Shown piece after piece: positions 1 to 61,943 of a stretch of DNA of 64,000 bases. The DNA is taken from the NCBI GenBank assembly GCA_963807605.1, contig CAWECG010000003.1, positions 256,001 to 320,000 of the forward strand. The letters run 5' to 3'. The number at the start of each line of letters is the position of its first letter. Position 1 is the stretch's first letter. The position numbers and the translations under genes are program-made. Source of the DNA: Candidatus Bathyarchaeota archaeon. GTDB lineage: Archaea > Thermoproteota > Bathyarchaeia > 40CM-2-53-6 > RBG-13-38-9. The notes beneath the pieces were generated by a model, which saw only the letters and a program-made list of their open reading frames with translations, was not told the DNA's origin and ran no database searches.

Positions 1-59
1 TTCAAATAGCGCGCTAGAGGCTGATCGAGTAACAGGTACGAGCAAAGGGGAGTTAAGAG

Positions 60-611
60 TTGACTATAAGAAACCTGAGCAAAGCAAAAGAAGCCTCTAT
101 AATCGCAATATCAGCAGCCATTTATTCTGTATTCTTTTCTTTATCAGTTGTTCTAACACTACCGGGATTCACCATCCTCTACCTCCCCGTAATTTTGCTA
201 GGAGTCTTTCCTCTTTGGTTTGGATGGAGCGGGTTAGCTGGCAGCATGATTGGAGCCTTCATTGGAGGTGCCTTCGTCGAGGGTTTAGGCTTTACTGGTG
301 TAATAGAGTCGGTTACTGCTTTGATCATTTATGGCCTTAATAGGATTCTTATTCCCCAGAAAGCTACTGAGTTAAAGACAAAAAGGGATCTATTTCTGCT
401 CTTAGTCGTGTATGCTGTGAGCCTCTTTGTGGGCACAAGTTACATCTTTTGGCAATATGTAATTTTGGGAGTGTTTAGCGCAAGAACCGCTGAACTATTC
501 TTCTTGCCAACGTTTGGTCTTAACCTAGCTATCCAATGGATCATCTGCCCAGTTCTGATTAAGAGATTGTCGCCAAAACTGAAAAGCTTAGGAATCTATT
601 CCGGAAAATAG
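60..611 (+). CDS. Small multi-pass membrane protein, possibly an ECF-type S component (QueT-like)
   Basis: 183-aa ORF with about 5-6 hydrophobic segments and an N-terminal AxxAAIY pattern similar to S components. Confidence 0.5.
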   Translation: MTIRNLSKAKEASIIAISAAIYSVFFSLSVVLTLPGFTILYLPVILLGVFPLWFGWSGLAGSMIGAFIGGAFVEGLGFTGVIESVTALIIYGLNRILIPQKATELKTKRDLFLLLVVYAVSLFVGTSYIFWQYVILGVFSARTAELFFLPTFGLNLAIQWIICPVLIKRLSPKLKSLGIYSGK

Positions 612-830
612 GTTACCCATCAGCTAGACCAATATGTTGGACTGGCCTACATTCCACGATCAGTTCCACGCCAAAAGCATCACAACAACGTGGAATTCCA
701 GTGGAGCCAGTTATCTATATCTCATATCTCCTGGTGCGGTCGCCAAAAACCGGCCCGTTAGGCCAAGGCAATTTGTGTGTGCTCACCAGCTATAGCGCGC
801 ACACACAATCTAACGATTCAAATAGCGCGC

Positions 831-1935
831 GGGGTTGTCCCGTTATTAGCGTTTTCATGTTAGGTTTGTCCAGTAGGTTATGCTTCTGGTTTTGGTGGGT
901 TGTTTGGTGTTGTGTGAGGCTTCTATGGTGTAGAGGAGGCATAGTATGCAGTAGCTGATGTGGATGGTGATGTTTTCTAGTCCTCGTGTCTTGTGGTTGT
1001 TGAGGTTGAGGTGTTCTTTGAGTGATGCGAAGACCAACTCGATGATGGAGCGTTTATTGTAGATGTGTTTGAGGTTTTCTGGGCCGTGTGTTTTGAAGTC
1101 GCTGGTTACTCTGAGGATGTTTTGTCTTTCAGGTTTCTGGTTGGCTGGGTAGGGTATCGCGGTCTTGATTCTGTGTTTTTTAGCGGTCTCTCTGAGTCTG
1201 TTGCTGGAGTATTGACTGTCAGCGGTTAGCTGTCGGATTCTGGTTGCTGTGGTTTTAACTGTCATTTTGAGGAGTGGTATGCTCGGTTTCTTCTCGTTAG
1301 TGTTTGCTGGTGTCACTAGGAATGTTAGGGGTGTGGCTGTGTCTGTATCGACTGTTAGGTGTAGTTTGTAGCCTAACCCGTATGTGCGGTAGGCTCTTCC
1401 TACACGTGCTTGAGGGTCACTGAAGCCTGTTCTATTGTTTATGTTTCGTCTGCTGTAGGCTTTGATGAAGGTGGCGTCCATAGCAACTATTCTTGGTGTT
1501 ACATAGCGCTTCTTCAGTAATTTCTTGACCTGTTTGTTTACTATGCGTCTTAGTCTTCTTGTTCCTAGTCGCTGGTTGAATCTTGAGAGTACCGTCCTAC
1601 CGTAGGCTGGCTCCTCATATCTTATGTCGCATATGTCACGTAGCCGCTCATCGATCCATAAGCGACGTTCAAGCTCACGCAGACTGTTTATTCTGAGGTA
1701 GCGTCTGGCAAGGTGTGCCTTGAAGAGTCCTAGAGGGTTACGTGGAGGTTTACCTGGACCTTCTTGATGATAGCAACTAACAACTAGACGTTCAACAAAT
1801 GATAAATCCAGATTACTCAGCAGTGACTCCAGAGTCTCGTACCCTTCTATCTGGAATCTCCTCCAAGTAGAAGGGTGCGGGGCTCAACCCTTATGGATCT
1901 TTCCGTGTCAACTCAAAGAATATCGGGACAACCCT
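831..1935 (-). mobile_element. Insertion sequence (IS5/IS1182-like DDE transposase), ~1.1 kb
   Basis: TIRs ggggttgtcccgtta (831-845) and agggttgtcccgata (reverse complement of 1921-1935), 13/15 identical; flanked on both sides by gcgcgc (825-830, 1936-1941). Confidence 0.9.
855..1883 (-). CDS. DDE transposase; the frame is open from 1883 but has no in-frame ATG/GTG/TTG before 1481 (5' frameshift or non-canonical start)
   Basis: DDE motifs MDATFIKAY, GYKLHL, ADSQY, YNKRSIIE; manual translation of the same frame upstream gives GPGKPPRNPLGLFKA...SLRELERRL, a typical transposase N-terminal domain. Confidence 0.85.
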   Translation of the reverse strand, partial: APHPSTWRRFQIEGYETLESLLSNLDLSFVERLVVSCYHQEGPGKPPRNPLGLFKAHLARRYLRINSLRELERRLWIDERLRDICDIRYEEPAYGRTVLSRFNQRLGTRRLRRIVNKQVKKLLKKRYVTPRIVAMDATFIKAYSRRNINNRTGFSDPQARVGRAYRTYGLGYKLHLTVDTDTATPLTFLVTPANTNEKKPSIPLLKMTVKTTATRIRQLTADSQYSSNRLRETAKKHRIKTAIPYPANQKPERQNILRVTSDFKTHGPENLKHIYNKRSIIELVFASLKEHLNLNNHKTRGLENITIHISYCILCLLYTIEASHNTKQPTKTRSITYWTNLT

Positions 1936-2040
1936 GCGCGCTAGATTGTTGATGTTGCTGCGCCTCGCGTGCTCAGGACTGGTCATTGAAACCGTGAACG
2001 TTCCCGCCCTACCGCGCACGGGAAGATACACGCTTGCAGG

Positions 2041-2439: not shown

Positions 2440-2497
2440 ACGACTCAGTTACCCCTCTAGTCACCCGTTCCGGTTCTTAAAAAAGCGCGCGCTATTT

Positions 2498-3454
2498 CTA
2501 TATGTACTCGCCGGCGTTTATCAGCAGCACTTGACCATTGATGTAGTTGCCTTCCTCCGCGAGGAAGACGACCAACTTGGCAACTTCTTCAGGTTCTCCT
2601 CTCCTTCCAAGAGGTATCTTAGAGACTCTTTCCTGCAAGAGGCCTGGAGGAATGGCATCTGTCATCCTCGTGTGAATGAATCCGGGAGCTATAGCGTTGC
2701 ACAGTATGTCGTATTGCGCATATTCTCTTGCAATGACTTTTGTGAGCGAGATGACACCACCCTTGGCAGCAGCGTAGTTGGCTTGGCCAACAGGTCCGTC
2801 TAGCGCGCCTTGGGAACTCATGTTTATTATCCTTCCCCTACCCGCCTCGATCATGTGAGGAATAACTGCCTTGGTGCAGTTGAAGACTCCTGTTAGGTTT
2901 ACGTTAATCACGCTCTGCCAATCCTGAGGACTCATGTTTGTGACGAGTCTGTCAATAGTTATTCCTGCGTTGTTTACCAGTACATCTATTCGGCCGAATT
3001 CCCTTAGCACTTGATCGGTCATCCGTTGGACATCATCGTACTTGGAGACATCAGCATTCACGAATACTGATCTCCCTCCCAGACTCTCGATCTGTTTCAT
3101 TACATCTTTGCCTTCCTCAGAGAGCTCCAGGTCATTTATTGCAACTTCATAGCCTTTCCTTGCTAGTTCGATTGCTATTGCTTTGCCTATGCCCCGTGTC
3201 GCGCCGGTTACCAGAGCAGCTTTTCTCTTTCCAGCTTCCGCCGTTTTTGGAACGAAGTAGGCGAAATCGCCGAAGTCTGTCCGTTTCGTCTGGATTGTTC
3301 CAGACATGCCGATCTTCAAGATCTCGAAATGGGACCGTTCTATTCTGACAGGCTTTCTCTTTCCTTCGTCGTCTTCCGCTATTCCTACTACATATTCTGT
3401 CTTGAATGGCGGGGGCACAATCGATACTAGTGAGAACGAGACCAGTCTGGCCAT
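2498..3454 (-). CDS. Fusion of a DUF35-type OB-fold (acyl-CoA-associated) domain and a 3-oxoacyl reductase (FabG-like SDR)
   Basis: N-terminal ~70 aa VPPPF..YVVGIAE.DEG....LKIGM....AYFVP; C-terminal TGATRGIG, NNAG, YAAAK, NAIAPGFI. Confidence 0.85.
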   Translation of the reverse strand: MARLVSFSLVSIVPPPFKTEYVVGIAEDDEGKRKPVRIERSHFEILKIGMSGTIQTKRTDFGDFAYFVPKTAEAGKRKAALVTGATRGIGKAIAIELARKGYEVAINDLELSEEGKDVMKQIESLGGRSVFVNADVSKYDDVQRMTDQVLREFGRIDVLVNNAGITIDRLVTNMSPQDWQSVINVNLTGVFNCTKAVIPHMIEAGRGRIINMSSQGALDGPVGQANYAAAKGGVISLTKVIAREYAQYDILCNAIAPGFIHTRMTDAIPPGLLQERVSKIPLGRRGEPEEVAKLVVFLAEEGNYINGQVLLINAGEYI

Positions 3455-3458
3455 CTTT

Positions 3459-4616: not shown

Positions 4617-4822
4617 CTCTTCAGGCTAGCAGGAGATGAATGCCCGCGAAAATAAGTCTAGCGCACTGAGCGCACAAGGAGTGCCACGCTAGCGACCTCT
4701 CGATCTACCAACCCCGGGGGCCGACTTGAAGACTCTATGCGCGCGTTTGTCTGACGCTAGCATCTGCTAGCCCAATTTCGCATACTTAAATCAAATTTCC
4801 TTTATTGTTTCTGATCGGTCTA

Positions 4823-5182
4823 TTACTGAGCTTTTTCCGGTTTGAATTCCCCTCGCAATAGGTCTGTTCTGGGCGGGGAGAACGACTCCAAGCAGATGTA
4901 TTCTTCGTCGCCAGTGATCTTGCCTGAGTGCGCTATGTTTGCTGGGATGAGAAAACTGTAGCCCTTCTTGATGAGGAATGTTTTATCTCCTATTTTGAAT
5001 GTGGCCTCACCCTGAAGGCAGTACGCGATCTGCTCCTGAGGATGCTTGTGCTCAGGTATTTCAGAGCCAGGTTTGATTCTGGAGTAGACCATAGTCATCT
5101 TCTCTCCGCTCCTCACAACCTTCATGCGGGCTCCTGGATGTCCTTCCCAGAATGCGAGTTGCTCCGTATCTACTGCTGACAT
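4823..5182 (-). CDS. Cupin domain protein
   Basis: PEHKHPQEQ...IPANIAHS cupin motifs; ATG at 5182 chosen to avoid overlap with the divergent DRG gene. Confidence 0.85.
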   Translation of the reverse strand: MSAVDTEQLAFWEGHPGARMKVVRSGEKMTMVYSRIKPGSEIPEHKHPQEQIAYCLQGEATFKIGDKTFLIKKGYSFLIPANIAHSGKITGDEEYICLESFSPPRTDLLRGEFKPEKAQ

Positions 5183-5324
5183 GATTCTTCTCTTGAAGAT
5201 GTGGCGGGGTAAATTCTTAAGAGTTATGTCATACCTGATGTGCTGCGAATAGCTCGGTTTGGAATGACTGCTGTTCATAAAGTCAAGAACTAGAACTGTA
5301 TGCGGCTGACTTGGTGTATTATCT

Positions 5325-6419
5325 TTGGGACTACCCGAGAAGATCAAAGCAATAGAAGAAGAGATGAGTAAGACCCAGATCCACAAACACACTGAGCATC
5401 ATATCGGACTTTTGAAGGCAAAGCTTGCAAGGCTGAGGGCTGAGCAAGAGAAGATACAGAGCTCTAGGAAAGGCGGCGGCGTTGGCTTTGAACTGAAAAA
5501 AGGCGGCGACTGCACCGTTGTCCTTATAGGCCTACCAAGCGTTGGAAAATCCACGATACTGAACAGACTGACTAATGCAAAGTCAAAAGTCGCGCCCTAC
5601 GCCTTCACCACTCTAACCGTTATTCCTGGTCTGCTTGAATACAAAGGTGCAAAGATACAGATCCTTGATCTTCCAGGCATAATTGCTGGCGCAGCAACTG
5701 GAAGCGGCAGGGGAAAAAGAGTCCTCTCCGTCGCCAGAAATGCAGACCTAATAATGCTGATTGTCGACGTATTTCAGCCCGCCCAGATAGAAGTCTTGAA
5801 GAAAGAACTTCACACGATGGGCATCAGACTCAATACTCATCCACCTAACATCAGTATTGATAGATCATCCCAAGGCGAGCTCGGTGTAACAGCAGCCTGC
5901 AAGCTGACTAAACTGTCCAAACCCACGGCCAAAGCGATACTGAACATTTACGGGATCCATCATGGAAACGTCATCATAAGAGAGGACATCACTGACGACG
6001 ATCTCATCGATATTGTGGCTGGAAACAGGCGATATGTGCCGGCAGTCAGTGTCCTGAATAAGATCGACCTAGTCAGTCACGAGTACGTGGCTGAAGCCAG
6101 AAAGCAGACACGCGAAGACTTCGTACCGATATCTGCTGACCGAAACATCAACCTTGAAAGCCTAAAGGAGGCCATCTACGACCGTCTGAATTTTGTCAGG
6201 GTCTTTCTTAAGCCGCGCAATGGTGAACCAGACTTTGACGAGCCACTCATACTCACAGCAGGATCCACCATATCAGATGTTTGCGCCAAGATTCATCGAA
6301 GAATTGCTGACGAAGCGAAGTATGCACTGGTTTCTGGAACCAGCGTGAAGTTCAGTCCTCAACGCGTTGGAATGGACCATGTCATACGCGACCGAGACAT
6401 AGTGACAGTCGTAACCTAA
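5325..6419 (+). CDS. DRG family GTP-binding protein (OBG family, TGS domain)
   Basis: GLPSVGKST, FTT, DLPG, NKID and C-terminal TGS (QRVGMDH). Confidence 0.95.
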   Translation: MGLPEKIKAIEEEMSKTQIHKHTEHHIGLLKAKLARLRAEQEKIQSSRKGGGVGFELKKGGDCTVVLIGLPSVGKSTILNRLTNAKSKVAPYAFTTLTVIPGLLEYKGAKIQILDLPGIIAGAATGSGRGKRVLSVARNADLIMLIVDVFQPAQIEVLKKELHTMGIRLNTHPPNISIDRSSQGELGVTAACKLTKLSKPTAKAILNIYGIHHGNVIIREDITDDDLIDIVAGNRRYVPAVSVLNKIDLVSHEYVAEARKQTREDFVPISADRNINLESLKEAIYDRLNFVRVFLKPRNGEPDFDEPLILTAGSTISDVCAKIHRRIADEAKYALVSGTSVKFSPQRVGMDHVIRDRDIVTVVT

Positions 6420-6516
6420 GCGCGCGCTCTCTCGCTGACGCACACGTCAGGCTGTTCAATCTCTCGTATATTGATTGGTCGAAGGTGTCACAGATACGCA
6501 CGCGTGGAGAAATCTC

Positions 6517-7815: not shown

Positions 7816-8044
7816 ATATTGCCTTCACAAGAAGGCCGATGATCTTCTTTAAGATTTATGAAATCCTTAGCTTAATCATTCCAAAGGATGAGTGGGAGTG
7901 ATGAGCAACCTAGTTTTGCGAGAAGTCGATGGACTGGAAATCAAGAATCATTGATAATTTTACAGACATATTGATGTCCGAGTCGGCTGGTGCTGAGCGA
8001 GCGCCTTTTGGCAAGGATGAGGTCATGAGACCGGCAGTGCGCGC

Positions 8045-8845
8045 TTACTTATTCTTCCATCTTGGTGTTCTTTTTTCCAGAAGTGCTTTAATTCCCTCTT
8101 CCGTGTCTTCAGATGTGGATGCGAGGGCAATTAGATCTTTTGCGTAGTGCATCGCCTTCACATATTCCATGTCTCCCATCATGTAGAAGGCCGGTTTCCC
8201 TATACCATAGGCTAACCTGCTCTTGCTCGAGATCTTCTCTCCAAGTTCAACAGCAACCTCGACATGCTTTCCTTTAGGAACGACCTTATTGACTAGGCCA
8301 AGCTTCTCAGCTTCGGCTGCGCTTATGGGATCTCCAGTGACCAACATCTACAGCGCTTTCTTCCGTCCAACGGATCTCTGAAGAGGTATCATAGGCGTTA
8401 GACAGAATAATCCTATGTTGACTCCGGGAGTCTGAAATACCGCATCCTCAGCGGCAACAATCATGTCACACGCCGCGGCCAAGCCACATCCTGCAGCAGT
8501 TGTATACCCGTGAGCCGCGGCGATCACGGGTTTACTCATTCGAGCAATATTTTCATAGACCATTATCGATTTTGTGAAGAGGTCTCTTTTTTCAAGCGGA
8601 CTGGCTTTCAAGATCTCTCTTAGGTCATGGCCGCTGCAGAAGGCTTTGCCTTCCCCTGCTATCACAGCGGCACCTAACCCGTCGTTCTCTTCAACATATT
8701 CTAATCTATCAAGAATATTGTCGATCATGGGCTCGTTAAGGGCATTCAACACGTGAGGTCTGTTCAACGTGAACAAACCAACGCTGCCTTTCTTCTCAAA
8801 CTTTAATGGCTCACTCTCCAAACTAAATCCTCTCTGTAAGGTCAT
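8045..8845 (-). pseudogene. Enoyl-CoA hydratase/isomerase interrupted by one in-frame TAG (8348-8350)
   Basis: Two same-frame ORFs join as ...GRKKAL*MLVTGDPISA...; crotonase motifs LNRP, AFCSGHDL, AAGCGLAAACD. Confidence 0.88.
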
Positions 8846-9317: not shown

Positions 9318-9593
9318 TTGACAAAACCACTGATGTACCGACGGTATTTCCCCAGGATCTTCGTGACAATGACTTTGTACCGTGTCTATTAAAGGGTAAA
9401 GATTCTTAGCACGCGAATATGAACTCAAGATCTCATATGATTGTTCTTAACCAAACAATCGGGAACATATTGAATTAGAAAATCGTATTACAAGCAAGTC
9501 AGATCAGCGCGCGCTAAAGTAAAGTATTATATTCGATTTAACAATTCCCGTTAACATTGGACTCTGAATACAAGCCTCTGCAAGTAAAGAACT

Positions 9594-10765: not shown

Positions 10766-10887
10766 ATGAAAAAGGTCTCTCTCAAGAGAGAGCTTCGACA
10801 TCTTTACAGCCCCTCAGCGAAAAAGGTCCAGACTCTTGAAGTCCCTGAGATGACTTTTCTGATGATGGACGGTCAAGGCGATCCAAA
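10766..10887 (+). pseudogene. N-terminal fragment of a GyrI-like small-molecule-binding protein
   Basis: MKKVSLKRELRHLYSPSAK...EVPEMTFLMMDGQGDP resembles that family's N-terminus; similarity stops at the AGCGCGCGCT motif. Confidence 0.7.
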
Positions 10888-10984
10888 GCGCGCGCTTAGA
10901 ATACACTGGGACGGCCACAGTCAATTCTTGATAATTGAAATGTAGGTTTAAACGGGAGAATTTAGATCGTAGACGTCTACACTA

Positions 10985-11844: not shown

Positions 11845-12402
11845 CTATTCATTTTTCGAAAAGCCATAGACGCCTATTTTCTTTTGAAGACTCCAGTATT
11901 CGTCTTGGTTGTAGACGAAGGGAGATGCTTTGGTGAAGTCTATCTTCTCCGTCTTATCTAGGATTCGTTGGTCCACGTGAACGCGCACAACCTTGCCGAG
12001 GAAGAGATGATGAGAACCCAAAGGAACCTTCTTTGTGACGACACATTCAATGTTGACAGGACATTCTTTGATAAGTGGGGGTTTAACCTTCTCCGCCGGT
12101 TCAGGTGTAAGCCCCGTTTCAGAAAACTTATTCACATCTCTTCCTGAGACAAATCCGCAGAAGTCTGATATCTTCAGAAGTTCCGTCGTTGGAATGTTGA
12201 CAACGAACTCTCCAGAATCCTCAATCAGTTTACAAGAATATCTGTGAGGACGTATACCCAGTCCCAGCATGGGTGGTTCCGAACACACAACTCCCGCCCA
12301 GGCCAGAGTGATTATGTTAGGCTTTCCTTTAGAGTCTACGCAAGTTACAAGAACGACAGGGCAAGGATAAAGAGCGGTCGAGGGCTCTTTTGCTAGTTTC
12401 AT
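11845..12402 (-). CDS. Flavin reductase family (flavoredoxin-like) protein
   Basis: LYPCPVVLV, NIITLAW, GEFVVNIP, CPVNIEC, GSHHLF. Confidence 0.92.
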   Translation of the reverse strand: MKLAKEPSTALYPCPVVLVTCVDSKGKPNIITLAWAGVVCSEPPMLGLGIRPHRYSCKLIEDSGEFVVNIPTTELLKISDFCGFVSGRDVNKFSETGLTPEPAEKVKPPLIKECPVNIECVVTKKVPLGSHHLFLGKVVRVHVDQRILDKTEKIDFTKASPFVYNQDEYWSLQKKIGVYGFSKNE

Positions 12403-12800
12403 AAGCGAGCGTCTCCGATCTTTGCATTTAACCTTTGCGAACTAGCCTCTTTGAATGTAGAACTAACTTATCCATTAACTACGGACTAGAATCTCACGCG
12501 CACTTTTCTGGAATAACTCGAGGTGCGGGGAGTTAGATGACAATTCACGTTTTGAACCAACGAAATTATGATGGAGAAATCATACGCTATGGTTCCGCCT
12601 CAATCGGACAAAAATACGCAAAATATCCTCAAAATGGCCTAATGCAATGGTGCGGGGGGATTCGCGCACCAGTTTACCAGTACATATAAGCCTTCTACAG
12701 ATCTGCGGTGATCCGGTAATTCGAATGATGAATTATAGAGATCCTTGTCGCTGCTGTGGGTCGAATCATTCGTGTGTGCATCAAGTTATGCGTACAGAAT

Positions 12801-14042: not shown

Positions 14043-14207
14043 TTTGGAACCTGCTGAAACACAGCCTAAGACGTAAAAGCAGAAAAAACTACCGGAAGAC
14101 TCACTCGTAATTTAAGCTACCAGATCAAAGGCATATTAATTGCCTCCACATAACCAACGATTTGCGCGTCCCAAAATAGAAGGGAAGATTGAGTTCAAGC
14201 GCGCGCT

Positions 14208-14394: not shown

Positions 14395-16050
14395 TCATGC
14401 TGCATAGACCCCTTCCTCCACGACATACTTTCTTCGGGCCAGGTCCATGAGATTTCGTGTGAATACTATTCCGTAGATTGCTACGACAATGGCGAAGAGC
14501 AACGATACCCATGCCGCGTTTTCCACATGTCCATTGGATATGTTAAGGCCGATGTATCTCATCATCCCATCACGGACTTCAAGTGAATGGGTCCCATCGA
14601 TGTTAGGCCAGAATTCTCCAATCTCTATTCCAGCCCAAGCACTGTTGATTGTACTCGAAAGGCCTGTTACTAGGTATGGGAATGTTCCGGGAATAATTAT
14701 GCGTCTCATGCGAGCTCCCCAACCGAGATCGTAATTACGCATGATTTCCCAGAACTGTGTTGGGATGGCCTGAACTCCAATCCAGAAATCGAAGAGCACG
14801 TAATAGAAGCAGCTCAGAAAACCCAAGGTGAATACATAGATCTCGGTCGAGTATGCCGCTGGGAATATTGAGTTGAATAAGGGGAATGTTGCTATGAAGA
14901 CAAGTGGAAAATAGGTTGGAGCTGGAAAAGCAGCTATCGCCTGAATGATGGGTGCAAATGTCAAACTTGCCTTATGGTGTATTGCCATAACATATCCTAA
15001 GGACACAGCCACGCCAAACGCGGCAGCAGTTACGGCTAATACCCTGACATAATCAATTCCCATCGAATACAGAAGATACGGGGTTGACCCCAGGAAAGTT
15101 CTCCATCGTTCTCCAGGAACCGCAAATGCGATCAGCAAAGAAGAGTAAACTAGGTACACCAAGACCATAATGCCCAAACAGAACGTTAACGACTTCGCAG
15201 CTACATTCAAGAGATGCCGAAAAGGTGACGGACCTTCAGCTTCGCCTTCAAATTCACTGCGATGCGAAGGGCGGGTAAACCGTCCGGCAAAGCGCGCTAG
15301 CGCGCGCGCGCTTCGGATACGACTACGGAAGACGTCTAACGCCCTGAAACGACGACTAAGTGGACTACGCCGTTTGATTTCAATCGTCGAATCGACGCTA
15401 TACTTGGCTACGAAATGCCTGCTCATAGTGGTAAGTAGCAATGTAACTCCGATCACGCCAACGGCGATGCATAAAAGCGAATAGTACACGTCAATGATGT
15501 CGCCTTGTTGGGTGAAGAGCGCTATTTTGGTGCCAATCCCAAATGTCTGATAGGTTTTAACACCAACCGTGAATACTTCACTAACAGCTATGTAGAAGAA
15601 CCCATCTGCGAAACTTGAAAAGAGATTCGCCGTAACACGCGGAATTGAATGCGGAATGTAAAGCTTCCACATTCTCCAGCCGAAACTGAAGCCATAGTTC
15701 TCAGACACCTCCAGGAGATGAGCTGGAACTGTCTTGAAAGCCTGATAGGCTCCGATCCAAACGTTCCATACAACAGCGTCCCAAACTAGAAAGTCAACCG
15801 CCACCTCTGTGCCCAGAGAGCCTCCTAAGCCCTGAATGAAAATTAAGAGGACGATTGGAAGGAACGCGATAACAGGGATGGATTCCAGTACGTTAACAAG
15901 AGGAACGTAAGCATTCTCGAATCTTCTACTCTTCACGGCAAGATATGCTAAACCCCATCCGCTCAGTACAGAGAGAAGCATAAGCAAAAGAATTCTGCTG
16001 ATCGTTGCGAGAGTAGCGAGCGCTATTATGGTAATGTCCATGCGTCTCAC
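14395..16050 (-). CDS. ABC transporter permease with two fused NitT/TauT-type membrane domains
   Basis: VLESIPVIAFLP and IIQAIAAFPAP repeats, two EAA-like loops; adjacent ATPase. Confidence 0.85.
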   Translation of the reverse strand: MRRMDITIIALATLATISRILLLMLLSVLSGWGLAYLAVKSRRFENAYVPLVNVLESIPVIAFLPIVLLIFIQGLGGSLGTEVAVDFLVWDAVVWNVWIGAYQAFKTVPAHLLEVSENYGFSFGWRMWKLYIPHSIPRVTANLFSSFADGFFYIAVSEVFTVGVKTYQTFGIGTKIALFTQQGDIIDVYYSLLCIAVGVIGVTLLLTTMSRHFVAKYSVDSTIEIKRRSPLSRRFRALDVFRSRIRSARALARFAGRFTRPSHRSEFEGEAEGPSPFRHLLNVAAKSLTFCLGIMVLVYLVYSSLLIAFAVPGERWRTFLGSTPYLLYSMGIDYVRVLAVTAAAFGVAVSLGYVMAIHHKASLTFAPIIQAIAAFPAPTYFPLVFIATFPLFNSIFPAAYSTEIYVFTLGFLSCFYYVLFDFWIGVQAIPTQFWEIMRNYDLGWGARMRRIIIPGTFPYLVTGLSSTINSAWAGIEIGEFWPNIDGTHSLEVRDGMMRYIGLNISNGHVENAAWVSLLFAIVVAIYGIVFTRNLMDLARRKYVVEEGVYAA

Positions 16051-17314: not shown

Positions 17315-17483
17315 TGGTGCGGGGAGTGGGACATTCGCCGACCTTGGACGCATTTCCAAAGGCCAGGATTCGAACCCACGTAGGGCTACCCCACGGGATG
17401 ACTCATCCTGTGAGGTGATCTTGAGTCTCACGCGCACACGCTTTGTGCGTCCCGCGCATTTGACCTGGCTCTGCCATCCCCGC
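17315..17483 (-). tRNA. tRNA-Leu(CAA) with three BHB introns (30/31, 37/38, 59/60) and encoded CCA
   Basis: Removing 17427-17450 (24 nt), 17400-17419 (20 nt) and 17332-17368 (37 nt) gives an 88-nt cloverleaf with long variable arm; each junction folds as bulge-4bp helix-bulge. Confidence 0.93.
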
Positions 17484-17619
17484 CTATAGAACAGACCGAT
17501 CAACTAGAGTGACAATAAAGCTTTCCAACAATCTCGTCGGGGCCCAAGATAGCACCGACTCTTGATAACATCACATACGGGACAAAATTTTAGAAATAGT
17601 CTGTCAGGAATCGCTGAGA

Positions 17620-17928
17620 TTATAGAAGTTCGATCTCGACGAAGACATCATCGGGTGTCCGGATTCTCATCAGACGTTTCATAAATCGCTCGTTAGGGTC
17701 GACGTCGATTAGCCGCTTGTGGATCCTCATCTCAAATTTGTCCCACGTATGAGTTCCCTGCCCGCAAGGCGTCTTTCTTGTTGGGACGATCAGCTTCTTG
17801 GTCGGGAGCGGGATTGGTCCACGGAGCTTAACCGCGGTTCTCTCCGCGATCTTCTTTATCTCATCACACATTGAGATTAGATGTTCAGGCTCCGTGCTTG
17901 AGAGTCTTATCCGTGCTTTGCCTGGCAT
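17620..17928 (-). CDS. rps10: 30S ribosomal protein uS10
   Basis: MPGKARIRL...[10 protein letters not shown]...[14 protein letters not shown]. Confidence 0.97.
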
Positions 17929-18022
17929 GTGAGCGATGTCCCAACCTAACCATAAACGGGTACACACTAGGAAACGTGTGGATTTTAAAAAGGTTTAGGT
18001 AAAGAATCGGATGGGTGGAGGC

Positions 18023-19321
18023 TTAACCTTTCTCTGTAATTTCCTTTACTACTCCAACCGCGATGGTCATGCCCATGTCTCTTACGGCGAATCTTCCTAG
18101 TTGTGGGATCTCGCTGTAGGGCTCAAGGACTATCGGGCTGAGCGGTCTCAACTTTACTAGCGCACCGTCACCAGCCTTTAGGAATGCAGGCTTCTCCTCG
18201 ATGACTTGGCCTGTTCGAGGATCGATCTTAGCGACGAGCTCTGTGAAGGTAGCTGCCATCGTAACTGTGTGGGCATGGAGTACAGGGGTGTATCCTTGCG
18301 CTATCGCTGTTGGATGGTAGATAATTATTATCTGGCCTGTGAACTCCTTTGCTACCGTTGGAGGTTTGTCTGGATGGCCGACCACGTCTCCACGGTGGAC
18401 GGTTCCTCTGTCGACTCCTTTGATGTTGAATCCTATGTTGTCTCCAGGCTCAGCCTGCGGCATCTTTGTGTGGTGGGTCTCTATAGTCTTGCACTCACCG
18501 GGTACGTTTCCGGGCATGATGACGACCTTGTCACCCTCTTTGAGAATGCCTGTCTCGACTCTGCCAACAGGAACCGTTCCTATTCCTGTTATCGAGTATA
18601 CGTCTTGAACAGGGATCCTTAGTGGTTTGTCTACAGGCTTGGGTGGTTGTGTGAAACCGTCCAGTACCTGCAAGAGTGTTGGGCCTTTATACCATGGCAT
18701 CTTGTCACTCTGTTTGGCAAGGTTGTCTCCTGTCCAGCCTGAGACCGGCACGAAGGCTATCTTGCTGGTGTCGTAACCAACGACCTTAAGCAAGGATTCT
18801 AGCTCTTTCTTGCATTCCTCGTATCTTGCCTGAGAATACTTGACAGTATCATCATCCATCTTCGTTATGGCTACAGCCAGCTGGTTGACCCCTAAAGTTC
18901 TTGCAAGATAGGCATGCTCTCTTGCTTGGCCTCCAGGCCCGACGCCTACCTCAAACTCGCCCTTCCTCGCGGAGACGGTGAGAATTGCGCAGTCCGCCTG
19001 GCTTGTGCCTGTGATCATGTTCTTGATGAAGTCTCTGTGTCCAGGTGCATCTATTATCGTGTAGAAGATCTTGGGTGTCTCAAACTTCTGAAAGCTGAGG
19101 TCTATTGTGACCCCTCGTTCACGTTCCTCTTTGAGGCTGTCAAGGACCCAAGCAAACTTGAAAGTCTCTCCAGCCCCAGTCTTCTCTGACTCTTTAGCGT
19201 ACTCGTCAATCTTCTTTGCATCGATGTAGCCGGTCTGATAGAGGAGGTTTCCGGTCATCGTGCTCTTTCCGTGGTCAACATGGCCGATGACTATCAAATT
19301 CAGATGGGGCTTTGTACTCAA
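18023..19321 (-). CDS. tuf: Translation elongation factor aEF-1A
   Basis: KPHLNL, GHVDHGKST, ERERGVTI, DAPGHRDF, LGRFAVRDMG; TTG start inferred. Confidence 0.98.
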   Translation of the reverse strand: MSTKPHLNLIVIGHVDHGKSTMTGNLLYQTGYIDAKKIDEYAKESEKTGAGETFKFAWVLDSLKEERERGVTIDLSFQKFETPKIFYTIIDAPGHRDFIKNMITGTSQADCAILTVSARKGEFEVGVGPGGQAREHAYLARTLGVNQLAVAITKMDDDTVKYSQARYEECKKELESLLKVVGYDTSKIAFVPVSGWTGDNLAKQSDKMPWYKGPTLLQVLDGFTQPPKPVDKPLRIPVQDVYSITGIGTVPVGRVETGILKEGDKVVIMPGNVPGECKTIETHHTKMPQAEPGDNIGFNIKGVDRGTVHRGDVVGHPDKPPTVAKEFTGQIIIIYHPTAIAQGYTPVLHAHTVTMAATFTELVAKIDPRTGQVIEEKPAFLKAGDGALVKLRPLSPIVLEPYSEIPQLGRFAVRDMGMTIAVGVVKEITEKG

Positions 19322-19391
19322 GATCTTAACCTCTCGATTCCGCAATTCGTAGAGTTGGGGCTCGCAAATATTTAAGGATTAGAGTCCCGCG

Positions 19392-19979
19392 CTACCTTGA
19401 TGCTTGGGCGACTCTCTCCATCTCATCGCGCTTCTTTATCGCAAAGCTCTTACTATCTCTGGAGGCGGCGTGGATGATCTCGTCAGCGAGAGCTTCATCC
19501 ACGGTCTTGGGGTTGCTGAAGGCTGCCTGTCTTGCTCCCTCAGCTAGATGGCGAAGAGCTAAGTCGACTCTCCGCTGAGGACCGATATCCACTGAGACCG
19601 GGTAGACGACGCCACCGTACGCTACACGAGTGATGTCCTCACATGGAGCTGACTTGGTAACAGCTTCTACAAGGACCTCGACCGGATTCTTCCCTGTCCT
19701 AAGGTGAACAATCTCAAGCGCATTCTTGACTATTCCTGTAGCCTTGGCCTTCTTTCCACCACATCTTCCGTGACGCATCATATTGTTCAGCAAACGTTCA
19801 ACGATATTGACATTAGACTTCATGAACCTCTGATGTTCATGCCTTCCACCGCTATGGGGGTTCTCGATGGGTTTGAGACCAATGTAACGCTGCAATCCAG
19901 CATCGTGAACCTCAATCCCTTCGAAGCTCCACTTGCCGAAGAGCTGAAAGGTAGGGCGAGCCTTCTCATCCTTACTCAA
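19392..19979 (-). CDS. rps7: 30S ribosomal protein uS7
   Basis: LFGKWS, NIVERL, PQRRVDLALR, ERVAQASR. Confidence 0.97.
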   Translation of the reverse strand: MSKDEKARPTFQLFGKWSFEGIEVHDAGLQRYIGLKPIENPHSGGRHEHQRFMKSNVNIVERLLNNMMRHGRCGGKKAKATGIVKNALEIVHLRTGKNPVEVLVEAVTKSAPCEDITRVAYGGVVYPVSVDIGPQRRVDLALRHLAEGARQAAFSNPKTVDEALADEIIHAASRDSKSFAIKKRDEMERVAQASR

Positions 19980-20084
19980 ACTATTCTAACACCAAACCTT
20001 GCGCGACTCCTATGAGAACTTGAAAACTCGATAATAAGGCTTTAGATTCACTCTGACAACAGTGGAGTCGTCATCTTTTTGAAA

Positions 20085-20410
20085 GGCGGCGGCGGCATCC
20101 CCAGAGGATTAGTACTCATCACAACAACGGAGTCCCAACGGCTTTCTGGACCCTGTTCTCCTGCCAGCGCCAAACCGTCCGCCTTACGATTGCTCTCTTC
20201 CGAGCCTCACCGGGTTCGACGGCAAAGAGATAGGTAACCTCCCTTCAGAGGCACCCCCTCCTCCGTCGGCCCAACAGGGCAGAGTTTCATCGTTAGCAAC
20301 TGGGCCCGATTGTTGGTCAGCAGCACCTTACCCCCAAGTTAACGGATCCCTGCGTGTAGCCGATTTCAGGTGACAAGGAACGGCTGGCTCCCCAATCCCC
20401 CGCCACCGCC
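20085..20410 (-). ncRNA. ffs: Archaeal signal recognition particle (7S) RNA
   Basis: Paired GC-rich ends (GGCGGTGGCG/GCCGCCGCC), Alu-like CTTGTCACCTGAAATCG, helix 6, GTCGAACCC, helix 8 GAGGCTCGGAAGAGAGCA; ~326 nt. Confidence 0.9.
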
Positions 20411-20436
20411 AGTGATAAACGCGCTTAAGCTCCCAA

Positions 20437-21369
20437 TTAAGCTTCCCGAGGAAGACACTCAATATCTCCGTTCCGCTCAAGGATCTCACATACTTTGCAT
20501 AGATCTCTACTTGTCCATTCGCCGCAGATCCTGCACGAATTAAGTTCTATCTTACGCCCGGCAAGTAGACTGCTCAACTTCATCTTTGAAGAGTAGGCTG
20601 TATGCTTCAAACCCGGATGCTTCTCCTCCAACCTGTTGAAGATCTCCCTCACCTCATTTCTCAAGGCTCTACTCCTATATGGACATGGGATACTCTGAAA
20701 CTCAAGACCTGTCAAATAGGCGTAGAGCGTTGTCTCACGTTCATAGATTTCGCTGAGAGGTTTGACTCTTGGGATGAATCTCCGGTTCGGATCGATAAGT
20801 ACAGGTCCTGTCCTCACCAACCTCTCAACGCCGCCGTGGAGAATGTTCAAGAGTGCAGTTTGAACCTCATCATCAAGATTATGTCCGGTAGCGATCTTGT
20901 CAGCTCCGATTGTTCTTGCAGCCTTCTCAAGGCCGCGTCTGCGAAGTACACCACAGTAGGAGCATGGAGCTAACTTCTTCTGTCTTTCAACGATCTCGTC
21001 AAGAGTCATCTGGAAAAGATCCTTGAATGAGAAGACCCAATGTTCCAACTTCAGAGAGTCAGCAAGGGTCTTGGCAAGGGATATAGCCTCGTCTCTGTAT
21101 TCTCTGATTCCTTCATCAATGGTTACAGCTGTGAGCCTTGACAGCGGAAATCTAGTCTTAAGTTTGCTCAGTATCAAGAGAAGGCTTAGGCTATCTTTGC
21201 CCCCTGAGACCGCGACAGCTATGTGGTCTCTAGGGTTAAACATCTGGTACTTGGAGATGGTGGATTGAACTTTATCTTCGACGCTTCGCCTAAAACATCT
21301 CTGGCAGAGATTAACCCCTTCATGCTCTCGTCTGTAGAAGGCTAACGACCCACAGAAGTTGCACAGCAA
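20437..21369 (-). CDS. TtuA/Ctu1(Ncs6)-family tRNA 2-thiolation protein
   Basis: CxxC zinc fingers at both ends, SGGKDS PP-loop, CSYCGVLRR, TGHNLDD, CPY. Confidence 0.92.
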   Translation of the reverse strand: MLCNFCGSLAFYRREHEGVNLCQRCFRRSVEDKVQSTISKYQMFNPRDHIAVAVSGGKDSLSLLLILSKLKTRFPLSRLTAVTIDEGIREYRDEAISLAKTLADSLKLEHWVFSFKDLFQMTLDEIVERQKKLAPCSYCGVLRRRGLEKAARTIGADKIATGHNLDDEVQTALLNILHGGVERLVRTGPVLIDPNRRFIPRVKPLSEIYERETTLYAYLTGLEFQSIPCPYRSRALRNEVREIFNRLEEKHPGLKHTAYSSKMKLSSLLAGRKIELNSCRICGEWTSRDLCKVCEILERNGDIECLPREA

Positions 21370-21378
21370 CGGATTTCA

Positions 21379-22536
21379 CTAGATCCTTACTAAACCGAAG
21401 TTAAAGTATGATAGAACTAGGTTCAAGCCCAAGACAGTCAGAAACACTATACTCAGAGCGATCCTGACATACTTGGCGGCTGCCTCTGATCTTGAGCTTA
21501 TGAGAGAGTGGACTATCTTATCGCCATCGAGTGGGTACAAGGGCAATGTGTTGAATATGGCAATCCAGACCAACAGGGCAGACGTCCAGTATTCTGACCA
21601 ATAAATATGGTAAGGTAAGTCTTTGGGGAGAAAAATCAAATTCGGCGCGAAGTAATTGAACGGATAGACGCCTAGCAGAGCTCTACTCAAATTCTGGGGG
21701 TTGGGTTGAGCCGTAACATCGATAGAACCGCGATCGGTTCTCAAAGATAGGACTGTTCCCGGCCTGACATTAAGCATGAAAGCTCCCAGTTCAGCGACGT
21801 TACGAATAGGCTGGTTGTTGATGGCGTAGATGACGTCCCATTTTCTTATTCCGGCCTTTTCGGAACCCCCGTTTTCAACCACTCCAGAGACCAGAATCCC
21901 TGTTGGACCATGGTACAGTGGGCTGATTGTTAGAGCAAAGTTGGCCAGCAGAAGTATGACAACCCCCCAGGCTACGATATTTGCTGAGGAGCCCGCTGCG
22001 AAGACCCTCAGCTTGGTAGCGAGTCTCGATTTCTCAAGCTTCTCATCATCTAATTCACACGCCCCTCCAGGAATAAGGACGGCAAAGAAGACCGCAACAG
22101 ACTTGATCGAAACACCATCTACCAAGCTTGCGATCGCGTGAGCGAATTCATGAGTTATAAGAACAACAGCCAAGGCCACGATGATGTACGGCAACGTTTC
22201 CAAACTGACCGTTACCCCCGGAATAAGTAAGACCATACCTGCTGCCTGTGGAGCTCTGGTGGTTAGGTCAAGCAAGTTATGTGATAGAAAATAGATTATG
22301 AAACCCATCTGACCAAAAGCTAAGACCACACCGAGATTCCATATGATTCTCCAAATTCGCACCCTCTTCTGAGAAAGCGAATTCAGGCTCTCATTAAGAC
22401 GAGACGTTCTAATCATCAAGAAGAGAGGCTCGACAGTTACACCTCTCTTCTCCCAAACGAATATCCTTGACAGTATGTAAAGCAAAGCCCAAGCAGCAAG
22501 ATAGACCAAGACTGTGAAGATGATGTCAGGCATCAC
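21379..22536 (-). CDS. Site-2 protease (M50) with PDZ domain
   Basis: HEFAH, AAGSSAN, FNTLPLYPLDG. Confidence 0.92.
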   Translation of the reverse strand: MMPDIIFTVLVYLAAWALLYILSRIFVWEKRGVTVEPLFLMIRTSRLNESLNSLSQKRVRIWRIIWNLGVVLAFGQMGFIIYFLSHNLLDLTTRAPQAAGMVLLIPGVTVSLETLPYIIVALAVVLITHEFAHAIASLVDGVSIKSVAVFFAVLIPGGACELDDEKLEKSRLATKLRVFAAGSSANIVAWGVVILLLANFALTISPLYHGPTGILVSGVVENGGSEKAGIRKWDVIYAINNQPIRNVAELGAFMLNVRPGTVLSLRTDRGSIDVTAQPNPQNLSRALLGVYPFNYFAPNLIFLPKDLPYHIYWSEYWTSALLVWIAIFNTLPLYPLDGDKIVHSLISSRSEAAAKYVRIALSIVFLTVLGLNLVLSYFNFGLVRI

Positions 22537-22715
22537 AGTCCCTCAATATCCGGCAACTGTCTCTGAGCGAACTCATAGTGCATGATGACACCGACAACTC
22601 TGATTATCTGCGATTCTTAGCATGTGATGGATAATCATCTATTAAACTTGTAGAAAGAACACGACTATTGTGTTGACGAGAGCGCGCTTATGACGGACCC
22701 AGCCCTAATCAGCCT

Positions 22716-23795: not shown

Positions 23796-24049
23796 GAATC
23801 TACCAGATCCATCTCAGTTCAAATCTCAGTTGAAGCATTGGCCTCTATACCTAGACTATTTGTATGAAGATGTGTGTTTGAATCATAAATTATCATATTC
23901 CAGAGGATAAGATTGTTGATGAATTAGACAACTGCTTATCAGCCACACGATGAGGCAGTAGCGTGTCTGCTGCTTTATCTATGAGTCCCTAGCGGAAGAA
24001 TTTAAGCGATTGTCGGATGCAAATCTCGAATGAAACAGCTGACTTTGTG

Positions 24050-24340
24050 TTACAGTGCTTTGATCTTGGCGTAAAAATCGATTAGCACCTTTGTCCTCTC
24101 GGAGATCTCGTTCAAACTGATTATTTTCATACCCTGGTCAAATCTATCTGATAGGACTATCTGTTCCTTTATCAGCGGCTCGATAACCCTCGCTATTGTT
24201 GATGGCGAGAGCCCAAGGATGTTGGCAAGAAGCGACTGATTGAAAATCTTACCTCTATTCTCCAACATATATTCAAGGAGCTTCACAGTCGCCCAAGACT
24301 GGAAAATATCTGTGAGTCTTACCAACTTAACCTTCCACAC
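24050..24340 (-). CDS. Winged-helix DNA-binding protein
   Basis: FNQSLLANILGLSPSTIARVIEPL HTH. Confidence 0.8.
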   Translation of the reverse strand: MWKVKLVRLTDIFQSWATVKLLEYMLENRGKIFNQSLLANILGLSPSTIARVIEPLIKEQIVLSDRFDQGMKIISLNEISERTKVLIDFYAKIKAL

Positions 24341-24347
24341 GAATTAG

Positions 24348-25028: not shown

Positions 25029-25415
25029 TCTTTACCCGAACAAGTGAAGGAATCGATTCTCCACTTATTTAAGACCGATACACTGTCGACAGGATCCAAT
25101 GCTTCTTGCCTGTCATCGATGTACTAATCGCCTTTTCGTGAATGTGCCTCTTCTATCAGGAGTATGCCTAGGAGTCCTGCTAGGACTAGAACAGAGGCTG
25201 TTCTCAGTTAGTTGCGTAGGTTGCATCACAGCCATAGTGCCTGCGAGGCCGGAGCCTAGTGCCATGGCTATGTCTGATGTCGACCAGATGAGGGTTGAAA
25301 CTAAACCAGTACGCGCGCGCGTCTCGACATACCAGTATTGTCAGGACGCCTTTTGAAGGAGTCAAGACTTTGTTTTGTTTCCGGCAAAAAATCAGGGGGG
25401 CTTGAACTCAGATCG

Positions 25416-38240: not shown

Positions 38241-38390
38241 TTCTGGGTGAAGGCGACTATAACACCGTTATATAAGTCTAACGTCACCTTGTGAGGTCGA
38301 GGAGAAACTACGTTGGTAGTTGCATACGCGCGCTTATGGAATCGGTTGTAGCATGATTGTGAGAGTTATGAAAATCATGGATGTGATCTT

Positions 38391-53845: not shown

Positions 53846-53997
53846 ACCGTTAGGCACTAGTACTAATTGCTGCATCCAGTAAATTCATTTGACCAAGCGC
53901 GATGTAATGATGCGCCCGCCGGTATGCACACCTATTCATTGCCATTAAAGCGAACCGCGAGTTAACATACTAGGCAACGAAAAGGAGGTGAACACGT

Positions 53998-59513: not shown

Positions 59514-59596
59514 GTTTTACCCGAGCCCAATCCACAACCGTCTGAAGCCTCTTTCAAGACGTAACAGACATGAAGTCAATCGAAGGCGTCTAGATC

Positions 59597-60625: not shown

Positions 60626-60665
60626 ATTATGCTCAAGCTTTTATCAAAGCACAAGCGTATCTGTA

Positions 60666-60908
60666 ATGGAGGAGCAATTGATGGAGCCCTCTGAAGAGAA
60701 GAAGAGATACTATTATTACGGCAAAGAAGAGGTTGAGGCGGCGAAGGTTTTAGAGGAAGCTGAAGAGGCGCCCATTGTAACACCTGCCATTGAGGAAGCT
60801 GTGGCGAAACCAGCACGCAAGCCAAAGAAGCCTGCAAGTAAAGCTAAGAGGAAGGCTGTCAAGAAGAAGGCTAAGCCGAAGAAAAAGTTCAAACGTAGTC
60901 GGCGCTAG
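60666..60908 (+). CDS. Small protein with acidic N-half and Lys/Ala/Pro-rich (histone H1-like) C-half
   Basis: 80 aa; KPARKPKKPASKAKRKAVKKKAKPKKKFKRSRR. Confidence 0.65.
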   Translation: MEEQLMEPSEEKKRYYYYGKEEVEAAKVLEEAEEAPIVTPAIEEAVAKPARKPKKPASKAKRKAVKKKAKPKKKFKRSRR

Positions 60909-61681
60909 TCCTTCAGAAACTTCGGAAGACAAATAGGGCTCTTCACCGGGTCGAATGCTTCAGTTTGCCGGATACTCAGTGGTGCAACTATTCTTGAAAC
61001 CATTCCGTGCAGGGAATAAGGGAGCCTGATGAGTCGCATTCCACCTGTCGTAACCCACTCGTCTATAGGATAGCCCTCACTCTTCATATCTGTGGCTAAT
61101 TTCTTTCTCCGCCTTCGTGGCCAAGTCCATGTCTCAGGATCAAGAACATGGATGTGGAATCCCCTGCCAGAATAGACCACGGATAGCTCAGAGAAGAGAC
61201 CGGATAGTCTCTCGCATAGGTCCACAGTCTTTTCCTTCACCACATTGAACTCCCAGACACAGAAGCTCAGTCCTTGTCCACGTCGCATCTTCTCCCTAAG
61301 CGATCCATGTACCGGGCACGTTATGTTCTCGGGGTCTAGATTGAAAGCTAACTCCTGGCCAAGAGTTCTTCTCGGCTCATCTGTCCTCTTATTGTAAATG
61401 TTTCTGTCGTAATAGACTGCCTCCGGCTTGAACTCAAGTAGAAGGTTCTTAACATCTTCAAGGCTTCCGTACTTCTTTATCAGTATCGATTTTGAAAAGC
61501 TCCGTTCATACTTCTTTGGATAGATTTTGGTATGTCTTCCAATTATTACCGCAAAGACGTTATGTCCTGAGCGTCGGCTAAGCCACCTGGAGACTTTGTC
61601 GAGGCTGAACTCATCTCGATAGAATCTCTCTCTTTCACTGAGCGTCGAGTAGTGCATTCCTGTCGGGAGACTGTACCTCAA
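60905..61681 (-). CDS. Archaeo-eukaryotic primase (AEP/PriS-like) paralog with motif I changed to NxD
   Basis: GQELAFNLDP, YSGRGFHIH, IDEWVT, RLIRLPYSLH. Confidence 0.85.
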   Translation of the reverse strand: MRYSLPTGMHYSTLSERERFYRDEFSLDKVSRWLSRRSGHNVFAVIIGRHTKIYPKKYERSFSKSILIKKYGSLEDVKNLLLEFKPEAVYYDRNIYNKRTDEPRRTLGQELAFNLDPENITCPVHGSLREKMRRGQGLSFCVWEFNVVKEKTVDLCERLSGLFSELSVVYSGRGFHIHVLDPETWTWPRRRRKKLATDMKSEGYPIDEWVTTGGMRLIRLPYSLHGMVSRIVAPLSIRQTEAFDPVKSPICLPKFLKD

Positions 61682-61943
61682 TATCTAAACCAGATCTGGG
61701 ATTGTTGTATACGTTAAGTACACTTTTGTACACAACTACGCGCGCGCGTTTTGACTTTGATTCTTTCTATGGGGGTTCTGAAGGATCATCATGTTTCACT
61801 CAATCATACTTTGGTTTTAAAGTGTTCCTTTGCGTTCGATCATTGATTATCTTCCACTTAGGTGATTAATGCTACAAGGTTGATCGACTTGAACACCAAA
61901 TATGTGTAAAGCTAAATACGTCCCAACGATCGGCTAATCAAGA

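Follow-up and report, generated by a model that had tools for sequence, protein, structure and literature searches.

Why should one short palindrome, built on alternating C and G, be the commonest word of its length in an archaeal genome? The question is raised by a stretch of 64,000 nucleotides from a Candidatus Bathyarchaeota archaeon, referred to here as the window, which corresponds to positions 256001 to 320000 of contig C3 in genome G000 (2.65 Mb, 47% GC, five contigs). The EF-1alpha relatives of G000 are all Bathyarchaeia metagenome-assembled genomes. A first-pass annotation of the window had described the word, AGCGCGCGCT, as a HIP1-like dispersed motif and as a selected architectural or recombination site. 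Our analysis leads to a different answer. Sequence comparisons strongly suggest that the motif is a scar of repair or rearrangement, formed de novo at breakpoints, and it is moderately probable that each joint is sealed by a short patch which a primase-like enzyme copies from a structured RNA.

The abundance initially reported for the motif was borne out. The window holds five copies of AGCGCGCGCT and two of ACGCGCGCGCGT exactly where they had been placed, and 100 dinucleotide-preserving shuffles yielded no copy of AGCGCGCGCT. All the short variants were found as well (at 9, 795, 825, 1936, 4739, 8039, 22682 and 38327), together with the long run inside a gene, and four further short runs (2803, 7680, 15292 and 25860) had gone unlisted. 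The hexamer GCGCGC occurs 30 times in the window against 6.8 expected, and 15 of the 20 separate CG runs of at least 6 nt lie within the first 16 kb. In the whole genome, AGCGCGCGCT is the single commonest 10-mer, with 106 copies, about 78 times the third-order Markov expectation. The k-mer count that had been proposed as a check revealed a clear enrichment, with 212 occurrences on both strands against roughly 2.5-2.7 expected under Markov orders 1-3; maximal-order z-scores are uninformative for this word, as its enrichment is carried by its sub-words.

AGCGCGCGCT is one mode of a family of the form A-(alternating CG, 8-12 nt)-T, in which A(GC)4T accounts for 106 copies, A(CG)4T for 30 and A(CG)5T for 19, and CG runs of at least 8 nt total 320 in G000. 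The flanks of the 106 AGCGCGCGCT copies are mutually unrelated. The half-sites nevertheless show a bias in the two nearest positions, where 79% have A at -1 and 42% have T at -2; farther out, the composition is that of the background. With regard to placement, 98 of the 106 copies (92%) and 269 of the 320 runs (84%) are intergenic according to our crude in-house gene calls, under which 80% of the genome is coding. The intergenic bias noted in the first-pass annotation was thus upheld, as was its count for the window, where seven of the eight runs of at least 8 nt fall outside well-scoring genes. Runs occur at a density of one per 8 kb and are clumped, favouring accessory regions (variance-to-mean ratio of 3.8 per 20-kb bin); the left end of the window belongs to a clump at C3:240-280 kb. 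Ten of the 15 genomes in the family are rich in AGCGCGCGCT, with 16-119 copies each; in the other families of the order it is rare, at 0-10 copies.

Extreme over-representation, intergenic bias, a palindromic sequence and common occurrence across the family all speak for a selected functional site, whether bound by a regulator or by chromatin proteins, forming Z-DNA, or linked to methylation in a HIP1-like manner. However, no preferred distance to start or stop codons was seen genome-wide in G000, and convergent, tandem and divergent spacers hold copies in proportion to the space that each offers, which argues against a role as promoter, operator or terminator. In the relatives G001, G002 and G003, the spacers orthologous to those of the window do not hold the long motif, and its presence differs even between close strains. 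Odd run lengths, which cannot form palindromes, are also common, and copies lie at homology breakpoints. We see very little chance that the motif is a functional site of this kind. Nor did its HIP1-like nature hold, given that the flanks are unconserved, the positions are not conserved across species or strains, the length varies and the great majority of copies are intergenic.

The evidence that the runs are joints comes from paralogous segments. When G000 was aligned with itself, a paralog alignment ended no more than 2 nt from the edge of the run for 52 of the 320 runs, compared with 5.2 such runs expected from random intergenic placement (sd 2.2, maximum 13 in 1000 trials); only nine are contained in duplicated DNA. 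The partner copy continued as ordinary sequence without a CG run in 43 of the 44 cases of high identity, and the run is therefore no site common to both partners. As expected for joint filler, the run stands exactly where homology to the unbroken copy ends, and is missing from that copy. At C3:253659, GCGCGCGC seals a 252-bp deletion, and a small gene family is ended by runs at two different codons. Among left joints flanked by A, the A is part of the old sequence in 10 of 17 (chance about 27%, p = 0.006), which hints at one-base priming. The motif is a product of rearrangement, not its target. It had also been suggested to be a hotspot for gene gain and loss: that link is retained, but not the motif as a pre-existing target or cause.

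The arrest of paralog homology at the motif, together with modules bounded by runs, such as that at 822-1943 of the window, could be taken as the signature of an integron-like system, in which gene cassettes would be shuffled by a site-specific recombinase with the motif as its core site. Such a recombinase would require the core in both partners, yet 43 of 44 unbroken partners have no run, and the breakpoints that carry runs occur at arbitrary positions, coding sequence included. We find this explanation scarcely credible, and the same unbroken paralogs contradict the selected architectural or recombination site that had been proposed.

A primase-like gene and the element at its 3' end

G000 contains one intact extra PriS-like gene, located outside the window at C3:72234-73127, which is our candidate for the writer of the scars. 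Its product displays the catalytic motifs DxD and SGxGFH of archaeo-eukaryotic primases (AEPs) on a PriS-like core, and D96, D98 and H154 are invariant in the alignment (A3). The profile matches PriS chains 9f26 and 1v33 at E = 1e-9. The protein matches only DNA_primase_S (PF01896) and PriS structures, with no match to a reverse-transcriptase family, and the Pfam score of the G000 protein lies just under the cut-off (24.2 against 26.8 bits).

A structured RNA-like element overlaps the 3' end of this gene (C3:72272-72353), and a second copy (C1:380245-380327) adjoins a broken gene. The element comprises, in order, GAUGAAA, a variable segment, UA with an A-rich tract, and a two-helix hairpin characterized by a AGGGUAAC loop and a GAUGAC internal loop. 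In 24 sequences, compensatory changes were observed in 10 of 11 base pairs; 89% of the cells were paired, compared with 50-56% when the partners were slid, and none of 500 shuffles reached the observed scores. Plain BLAST of the downstream flanks of the gene revealed no DNA-level conservation; only motif and structure comparisons brought the element to light. A covariance model produced 31 matches in 512 kb of metagenome loci, all of them on the strand of the gene and at its 3' end. Across these loci, gene and element were shown to be strictly linked. The model also matched two copies in G000, four in G001, seven in G003 and three in G013, all of which rank among the five genomes richest in the motif, and none in motif-poor members of the family. 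The distant homologs in G230, G152 and G115 are devoid of the element, and a weak R1 match in the window (53888-53945, E = 0.24) was taken as chance. We infer that the element works as RNA.

Comparison of the loci also showed that the variable segment covaries with the repeats nearby. GCGC-UA is accompanied by TA(GC)n, GCGC-AUA by AT(GC)n, AGCUAGCUA by (AGCT)n and CCGGCCGUA by (CGGC)n. In the DNA flanking GCGC-type loci, we counted 38 (GC)8+, two (AGCT)2+ and one (GGCC)2+ repeats; the corresponding counts were 3, 10 and 0 for AGCU-type loci (AGCUAGCUA), and 0, 1 and 8 for CCGGCCG-type loci (CCGGCCGUA). The association of segment class with repeat class gives a chi-square of 80.4 with 4 degrees of freedom, an approximate value because the loci are partly related. 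The flanks switch with the segment as well. The half-sites ATGCGCGC and TAGCGCGC were found 14 and 0 times, respectively, at GCGC-AUA loci and 7 and 24 times at GCGC-UA loci, with a probability of about 3e-6 (hypergeometric, calculated by hand after removal of one duplicate locus). Several element copies contain CGCGCUA, the complement of the main half-site TAGCGCG. In G000 itself, the copy at the intact gene reads GAGCGCGUA and the second copy GACGCGCUA; half-sites of the genome come in two phases, TACGCGC and TAGCGCG, which are the respective complements. The T at -2 and A at -1 of the flank agree with the complement of the UA in the RNA.

Other candidates for the writer were rejected. The Prim-Pol family PF09250 has no match in the genome. 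The window contains a small AEP-like gene of its own (60905-61657, minus strand), beside the run at 61738, but this gene is conserved as a single copy, is also present in the motif-free genus g5 and is missing from the matches in g3 and g4, two motif-rich genera. It encodes an AEP/PriS-like protein of 250 amino acids, occurs once per genome both in family f2 and in several genera of the present family, and is a separate paralog not linked to the motif. Non-homologous end joining (NHEJ) by Ku and LigD was discarded as Ku is uncorrelated with the motif, being found in family f2 and, within the present family, only in G000. The G000 operon (C1:590293-593430) encodes Ku, a LigD-type polymerase and a probable ligase, as in bacterial-style NHEJ, and a copy of AGCGCGCGCT sits between two of its genes. 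A word common to the surroundings of the primase gene, TCTTCTACCT, led nowhere.

Proposed templated tailing of broken ends and its alternatives

In the mechanism that we propose, broken DNA would be rejoined and the joint closed by a new short patch of the form (T)A-(GC)n-T(A), with deletions, insertions, truncations and unions of unrelated pieces among the resulting joints. The small PriS-like enzyme would use a few nucleotides of its structured RNA partner as a template for lengthening each 3' end, and the copied segment, ...GCGC-UA followed by the A-rich tract, would yield tails of the form TA-GCGC.... As these tails would be self-complementary, any two tailed ends could anneal, after which they would be filled in and ligated, and the annealing register would set the length of the palindrome. 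Scars would build up at places where they do no harm, chiefly intergenic and accessory DNA, and purifying selection would clear most of them from genes, which would explain the intergenic bias without a selected function of the motif. From the linkage of gene, element and repeats, we infer that the primase-like protein copies the element and that the ends are tailed and annealed. We give about even chances to the broader proposition that an AEP enzyme with a template RNA in its own transcript writes programmable self-complementary sticky ends capable of joining any two broken ends. This would amount to telomerase-like RNA-templated DNA synthesis outside the reverse-transcriptase family, and to a major driver of gene shuffling in Bathyarchaeia.

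Genuine junction filler could also be made otherwise, for example if a polymerase of replication or repair produced self-complementary (GC)n at DNA ends by hairpin formation or slippage; the segment would then serve as a template at the DNA level or would itself have arisen in this way. Archaeal family-B polymerases lengthen short palindromic repeats in vitro. The runs vary in length and phase, odd lengths included, several motif-rich genomes have no detectable primase-RNA module, and the PriSL primase of Saccharolobus performs terminal transfer and microhomology joining (PMC12019639). However, untemplated slippage leaves three features unexplained: the fixed (T)A flank, the switch between AT and TA flanks that tracks the RNA segment, and the (AGCT)n and (CGGC)n repeats, which are found only beside matching segments. 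The segment, moreover, differs from a scar in that its place within a conserved framework is fixed and homology extends to either side of it. For these reasons, another route to the filler seems rather unlikely.

Another possibility is that a mobile element, which ends in the hairpin-bearing 3' end of the primase-like gene, left the runs on insertion or excision as footprints or solo copies of its terminus. The gene is rare and patchy (11 of 401 genomes of the class) and often fragmentary, it commonly has matching runs 80-190 nt upstream, homology between loci stops just past the hairpin, and the clustering of runs in accessory regions (described above) points the same way. Yet most runs join unrelated sequences or seal deletions, and do not mark clean insertions. 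No transposase or integrase is linked to the primase module, the neighbouring ORFs in locus L164 are on the opposite strand, and no relatives of the gene were found in viral contigs. Hundreds of footprints of 8-10 nt with no element copies nearby are also hard to derive from one or two elements. We regard a mobile element as quite improbable.

Several observations weigh against templated tailing by the primase-like enzyme. Sequence alone fits a template acting either as RNA or as DNA. The sole intact primase-like gene of G000 carries GAGCGCGUA, which corresponds to the minor phase, and the copy for the major TAGCGCG phase lies beside the broken gene. Six motif-bearing genomes of the family (G002, G004, G007, G009, G010 and G015) gave no match to the RNA, and four of them also have no gene fragment; these are incomplete metagenome-assembled genomes, and scars may outlive their writer. 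In G031, the predicted scar ACGGCCGT is not enriched genome-wide (11 copies against 19 for the control), and CGGCCGGCCG has only three copies, two of them on the primase contig. At loci L132, L149 and L158, repeats that would correspond to the segment are missing. The metagenome loci are partly redundant and the related genomes are not independent. Finally, some synteny breaks in the window, near 28.6 kb and 58 kb, carry no run.

Runs and other features of the window

The runs of the window are listed in Table 1. The window was compared with the relatives G001, G002 and G003, and also with G004; five relatives were used for DNA matching. Public metagenome contigs from other studies, 93-97% identical to the window, were considered as well, including X1 and X2 from soil and X7 from a marsh. 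The public runs covered at most a quarter of the sampled words, and uncovered stretches (e.g. 14.9-16 kb) are uninformative.

Table 1. Alternating CG runs and associated features in the 64,000-nt window
Feature	Position	Strand	Context
Short variant TAGCGCGCTA, (GC)3 core	7-16		Sequence match
Window copy of a dispersed element of about 60 nt	720-840	minus	
Two short runs (795-800, 825-831)	794-832		Adjoin truncated GGTGAGAGCAYC...TTTGAAYCGTTAG repeat copy
Short run	1936-1943		Right edge of 1.1-kb module; G001 matches stop at 1943
AGCGCGCGCT	2484-2493		4 nt past stop of short-chain dehydrogenase gene (2498-3454, minus strand)
Short run GCGCGCG in spacer	4738-4746		Synteny breakpoint relative to G001
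AGCGCGCGCT over TAA stop of GTPase gene	6419-6428		Strain-variable joint
Short run GCGCGC between two genes	8038-8045		Joint
AGCGCGCGCT in divergent spacer	9506-9515		Spanned by X1 and X2 contigs
AGCGCGCGCT downstream of truD	10887-10896		Strain breakpoint
AGCGCGCGCT between Nramp and ABC-permease genes	14198-14207		In 12.7-17.3 kb segment
Composite run GCGCGC + TA + (GC)6	15290-15313		In frame in ABC permease gene (14395-16041, minus strand)
Short (GC)3 run	22681-22688		Inside collinear core block
ACGCGCGCGCGT	25311-25322		End of 8-kb syntenic block, 94 nt from tRNA-Val
tRNA-Val	25416-25509		
Short run (CG)3C	38325-38333		Sequence match
ACGCGCGCGCGT	61738-61749		About 50 nt inside left edge of G000-specific 1.8-kb insertion

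Relative to its relatives, the first 17 kb of the window is a mosaic. The expectation that synteny breakpoints would coincide with the motif was confirmed at several runs, but not at the run-free breaks mentioned above. The run at 825-831 forms the left edge of the 1.1-kb module (822-1943), which is 90% identical to contig C153 of G001, with 70-77% identity for the neighbouring core genes. Homology of the module begins 3 nt ahead of the left run in both G000 and G001, and the G001 copy also has a CG run at its right edge, at the end of the contig. Near 2484, DNA homology to G003 and G004 begins at 2496-2500, which is not decisive because a gene ends there as well. At the breakpoint at 4738, the ortholog of 4810-5449 in G001 adjoins the ortholog of 11858-12401 instead of the thiolase gene.

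Differences between strains are seen at several of these joints. The X1 and X2 contigs cross 6421 minus exactly 8 nt, a strain indel that represents either a gain or a loss, and the X7 contig carries the motif at 6419 and diverges after 6428; the spacer in question is 1.2 kb long in G001, and a flanking gene is inverted in G003. At 8038, the X2 contig matches only rightwards from 8045, with 295 unmatched letters to the left, and G001 and G003 have 838-905 bp extra. At 10887, the X7 contig matches up to the run and continues with about 150 unlike letters, and the X1 and X2 contigs read through. As the copies at 9506 and 10887 are both spanned by independent public assemblies, they are not assembly chimeras, a concern that the first-pass annotation had raised. 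No run was found in the orthologous spacers of 9506 in G001, G002 and G003.

The segment at 12.7-17.3 kb, which holds the runs at 14198 and 15290-15313, has no DNA match in the five relatives. The composite run encodes ...RSARALARF... between two BPD_transp_1 halves, and from its position it looks like a tolerated in-frame scar in a linker. The run at 22681 could be due to chance, about seven GCGCGC being expected in the window. The run at 25311 ends a collinear block, in which matches extend from window position 17366 to 25310 for G001 (C333) and to 25289 for G002 (C40), and to its right the window matches other contigs in reverse orientation. The sequence at 25323-25447, consisting of the 3' flank and part of tRNA-Val, matches several other contigs of G001 and G002 at 81-85%, and also contig C4 of G000; it looks like an integration hot spot or an att-like remnant beside the synteny break.

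The 1.8-kb insertion that holds the run at 61738 (approximately 61689-63488) brought in a gene for a Peripla_BP_6 solute-binding protein. The insertion is absent from five other genomes, which represent four genera; there, the genes found in the window at 60905-61657 and 63494-64666 directly adjoin each other. It is bordered by an imperfect duplication of 9-10 nt, TAYCTCAAWA (TACCTCAATA / TATCTCAAAA), which suggests insertion at a staggered cut.

Three further observations concern other parts of the window. In G001 (C66) and G002 (C27), the blocks at 25.4-28.6 and 58.1-61.7 kb are adjacent, and about 29 kb (28600-58100) separates them in G000; judged by this comparison, the DNA is inserted or rearranged in G000, with borders that have no long CG runs. 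A short multi-copy sequence at 12522-12693 is 82-97% identical to several G001 and G002 contigs, a public contig there shows a joint going back 33, and the sequence may represent a mobile or RNA element of small size. Besides the CG runs, the genome has another dispersed element, about 60 nt long, of the form YTAG-CTGGTGAG-AGCAYC-nnn-AATTTGAACCGTTAG-...-TTTT, which occurs genome-wide (e.g. C1:418380-418440 of G000) in addition to its window copy, where CG runs cut it short. Next to the element comes a microsatellite of the type (GT)n, (GTC)n or (GGT)n, and copies often stand in tandem or in inverted orientation; as a result, (CA)n and TAGCTGGTGAGCAC are among the commonest words of the genome.

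Relation to known systems

Literature searches for the 10-mer and for a system combining a primase with an RNA template returned nothing relevant. If the proposed mechanism is true, it would be the first RNA-templated extension of DNA ends by a primase-type enzyme, and DNA ends would be joined in a manner new to science. The mosaic accessory regions of uncultured sediment and soil archaea would be explained, and former breaks and joins could be read from the scars in genomes and metagenomes. A template so short and evolvable would also suggest that end tailing by the enzyme is programmable. Whatever the mechanism, a genome's commonest word can be a by-product of repair rather than a signal, which calls for caution in motif-based regulatory inference.

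With regard to dispersed repeats, the motif differs from REP or MITE sequences in that nothing is conserved beyond the core, as the unrelated flanks of the 106 copies indicate. It also differs from integron attC sites or a dif-like core, since the core is not found at both partners. The resemblance to HIP1 is that of a short, GC-rich palindrome which is the most over-represented word of its genome. HIP1, however, is a fixed octamer of cyanobacteria, GCGATCGC, which is very dense and abundant inside coding regions. The present motif is A(GC)4T with length variants in a Bathyarchaeia host, at one run per 8 kb, mostly (84-92%) intergenic, and it marks breakpoints and varies between strains.

The runs share with filler DNA, such as the N/P nucleotides of V(D)J joints and the templated insertions of polymerase theta, the presence of extra nucleotides exactly at joints and their absence from the unbroken allele. 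To our knowledge, filler is either random or copied from DNA flanking the break. Here, in contrast, one palindrome is written at hundreds of unrelated sites. The closest enzymes are AEP-family members that act at double-strand breaks, namely the LigD polymerase domain of NHEJ and the archaeal primase PriSL of Saccharolobus islandicus, which carries out microhomology-mediated end joining (PMC12019639); in common with the candidate system, they involve terminal transfer, annealing of short complementary tails and small indels. PriSL and LigD use existing DNA microhomology or untemplated nucleotides, whereas the filler described here is constant, lineage-specific and tracks an RNA segment.

The proposed system most resembles telomerase (TERT and telomerase RNA) and bacterial DRT10, a reverse transcriptase that produces tandem-repeat DNA together with a non-coding RNA (bioRxiv 10.1101/2025.10.16.682844). 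All three, the present one as proposed, couple a polymerase to a structured RNA of its own, and a short stretch within that RNA apparently dictates the short repeat that is added to DNA. Of the features that define those systems, a linked structured element was found here, as was complementarity between template and repeat (four segment classes with four repeat or flank classes, G031 being negative), but not a reverse transcriptase: the candidate enzyme has an archaeo-eukaryotic primase fold instead of a reverse-transcriptase fold. The gene of the enzyme itself contains the RNA element, at its 3' end. The predicted products are not long chromosome-end arrays or protein-primed cDNA but short, self-complementary patches at internal joints.

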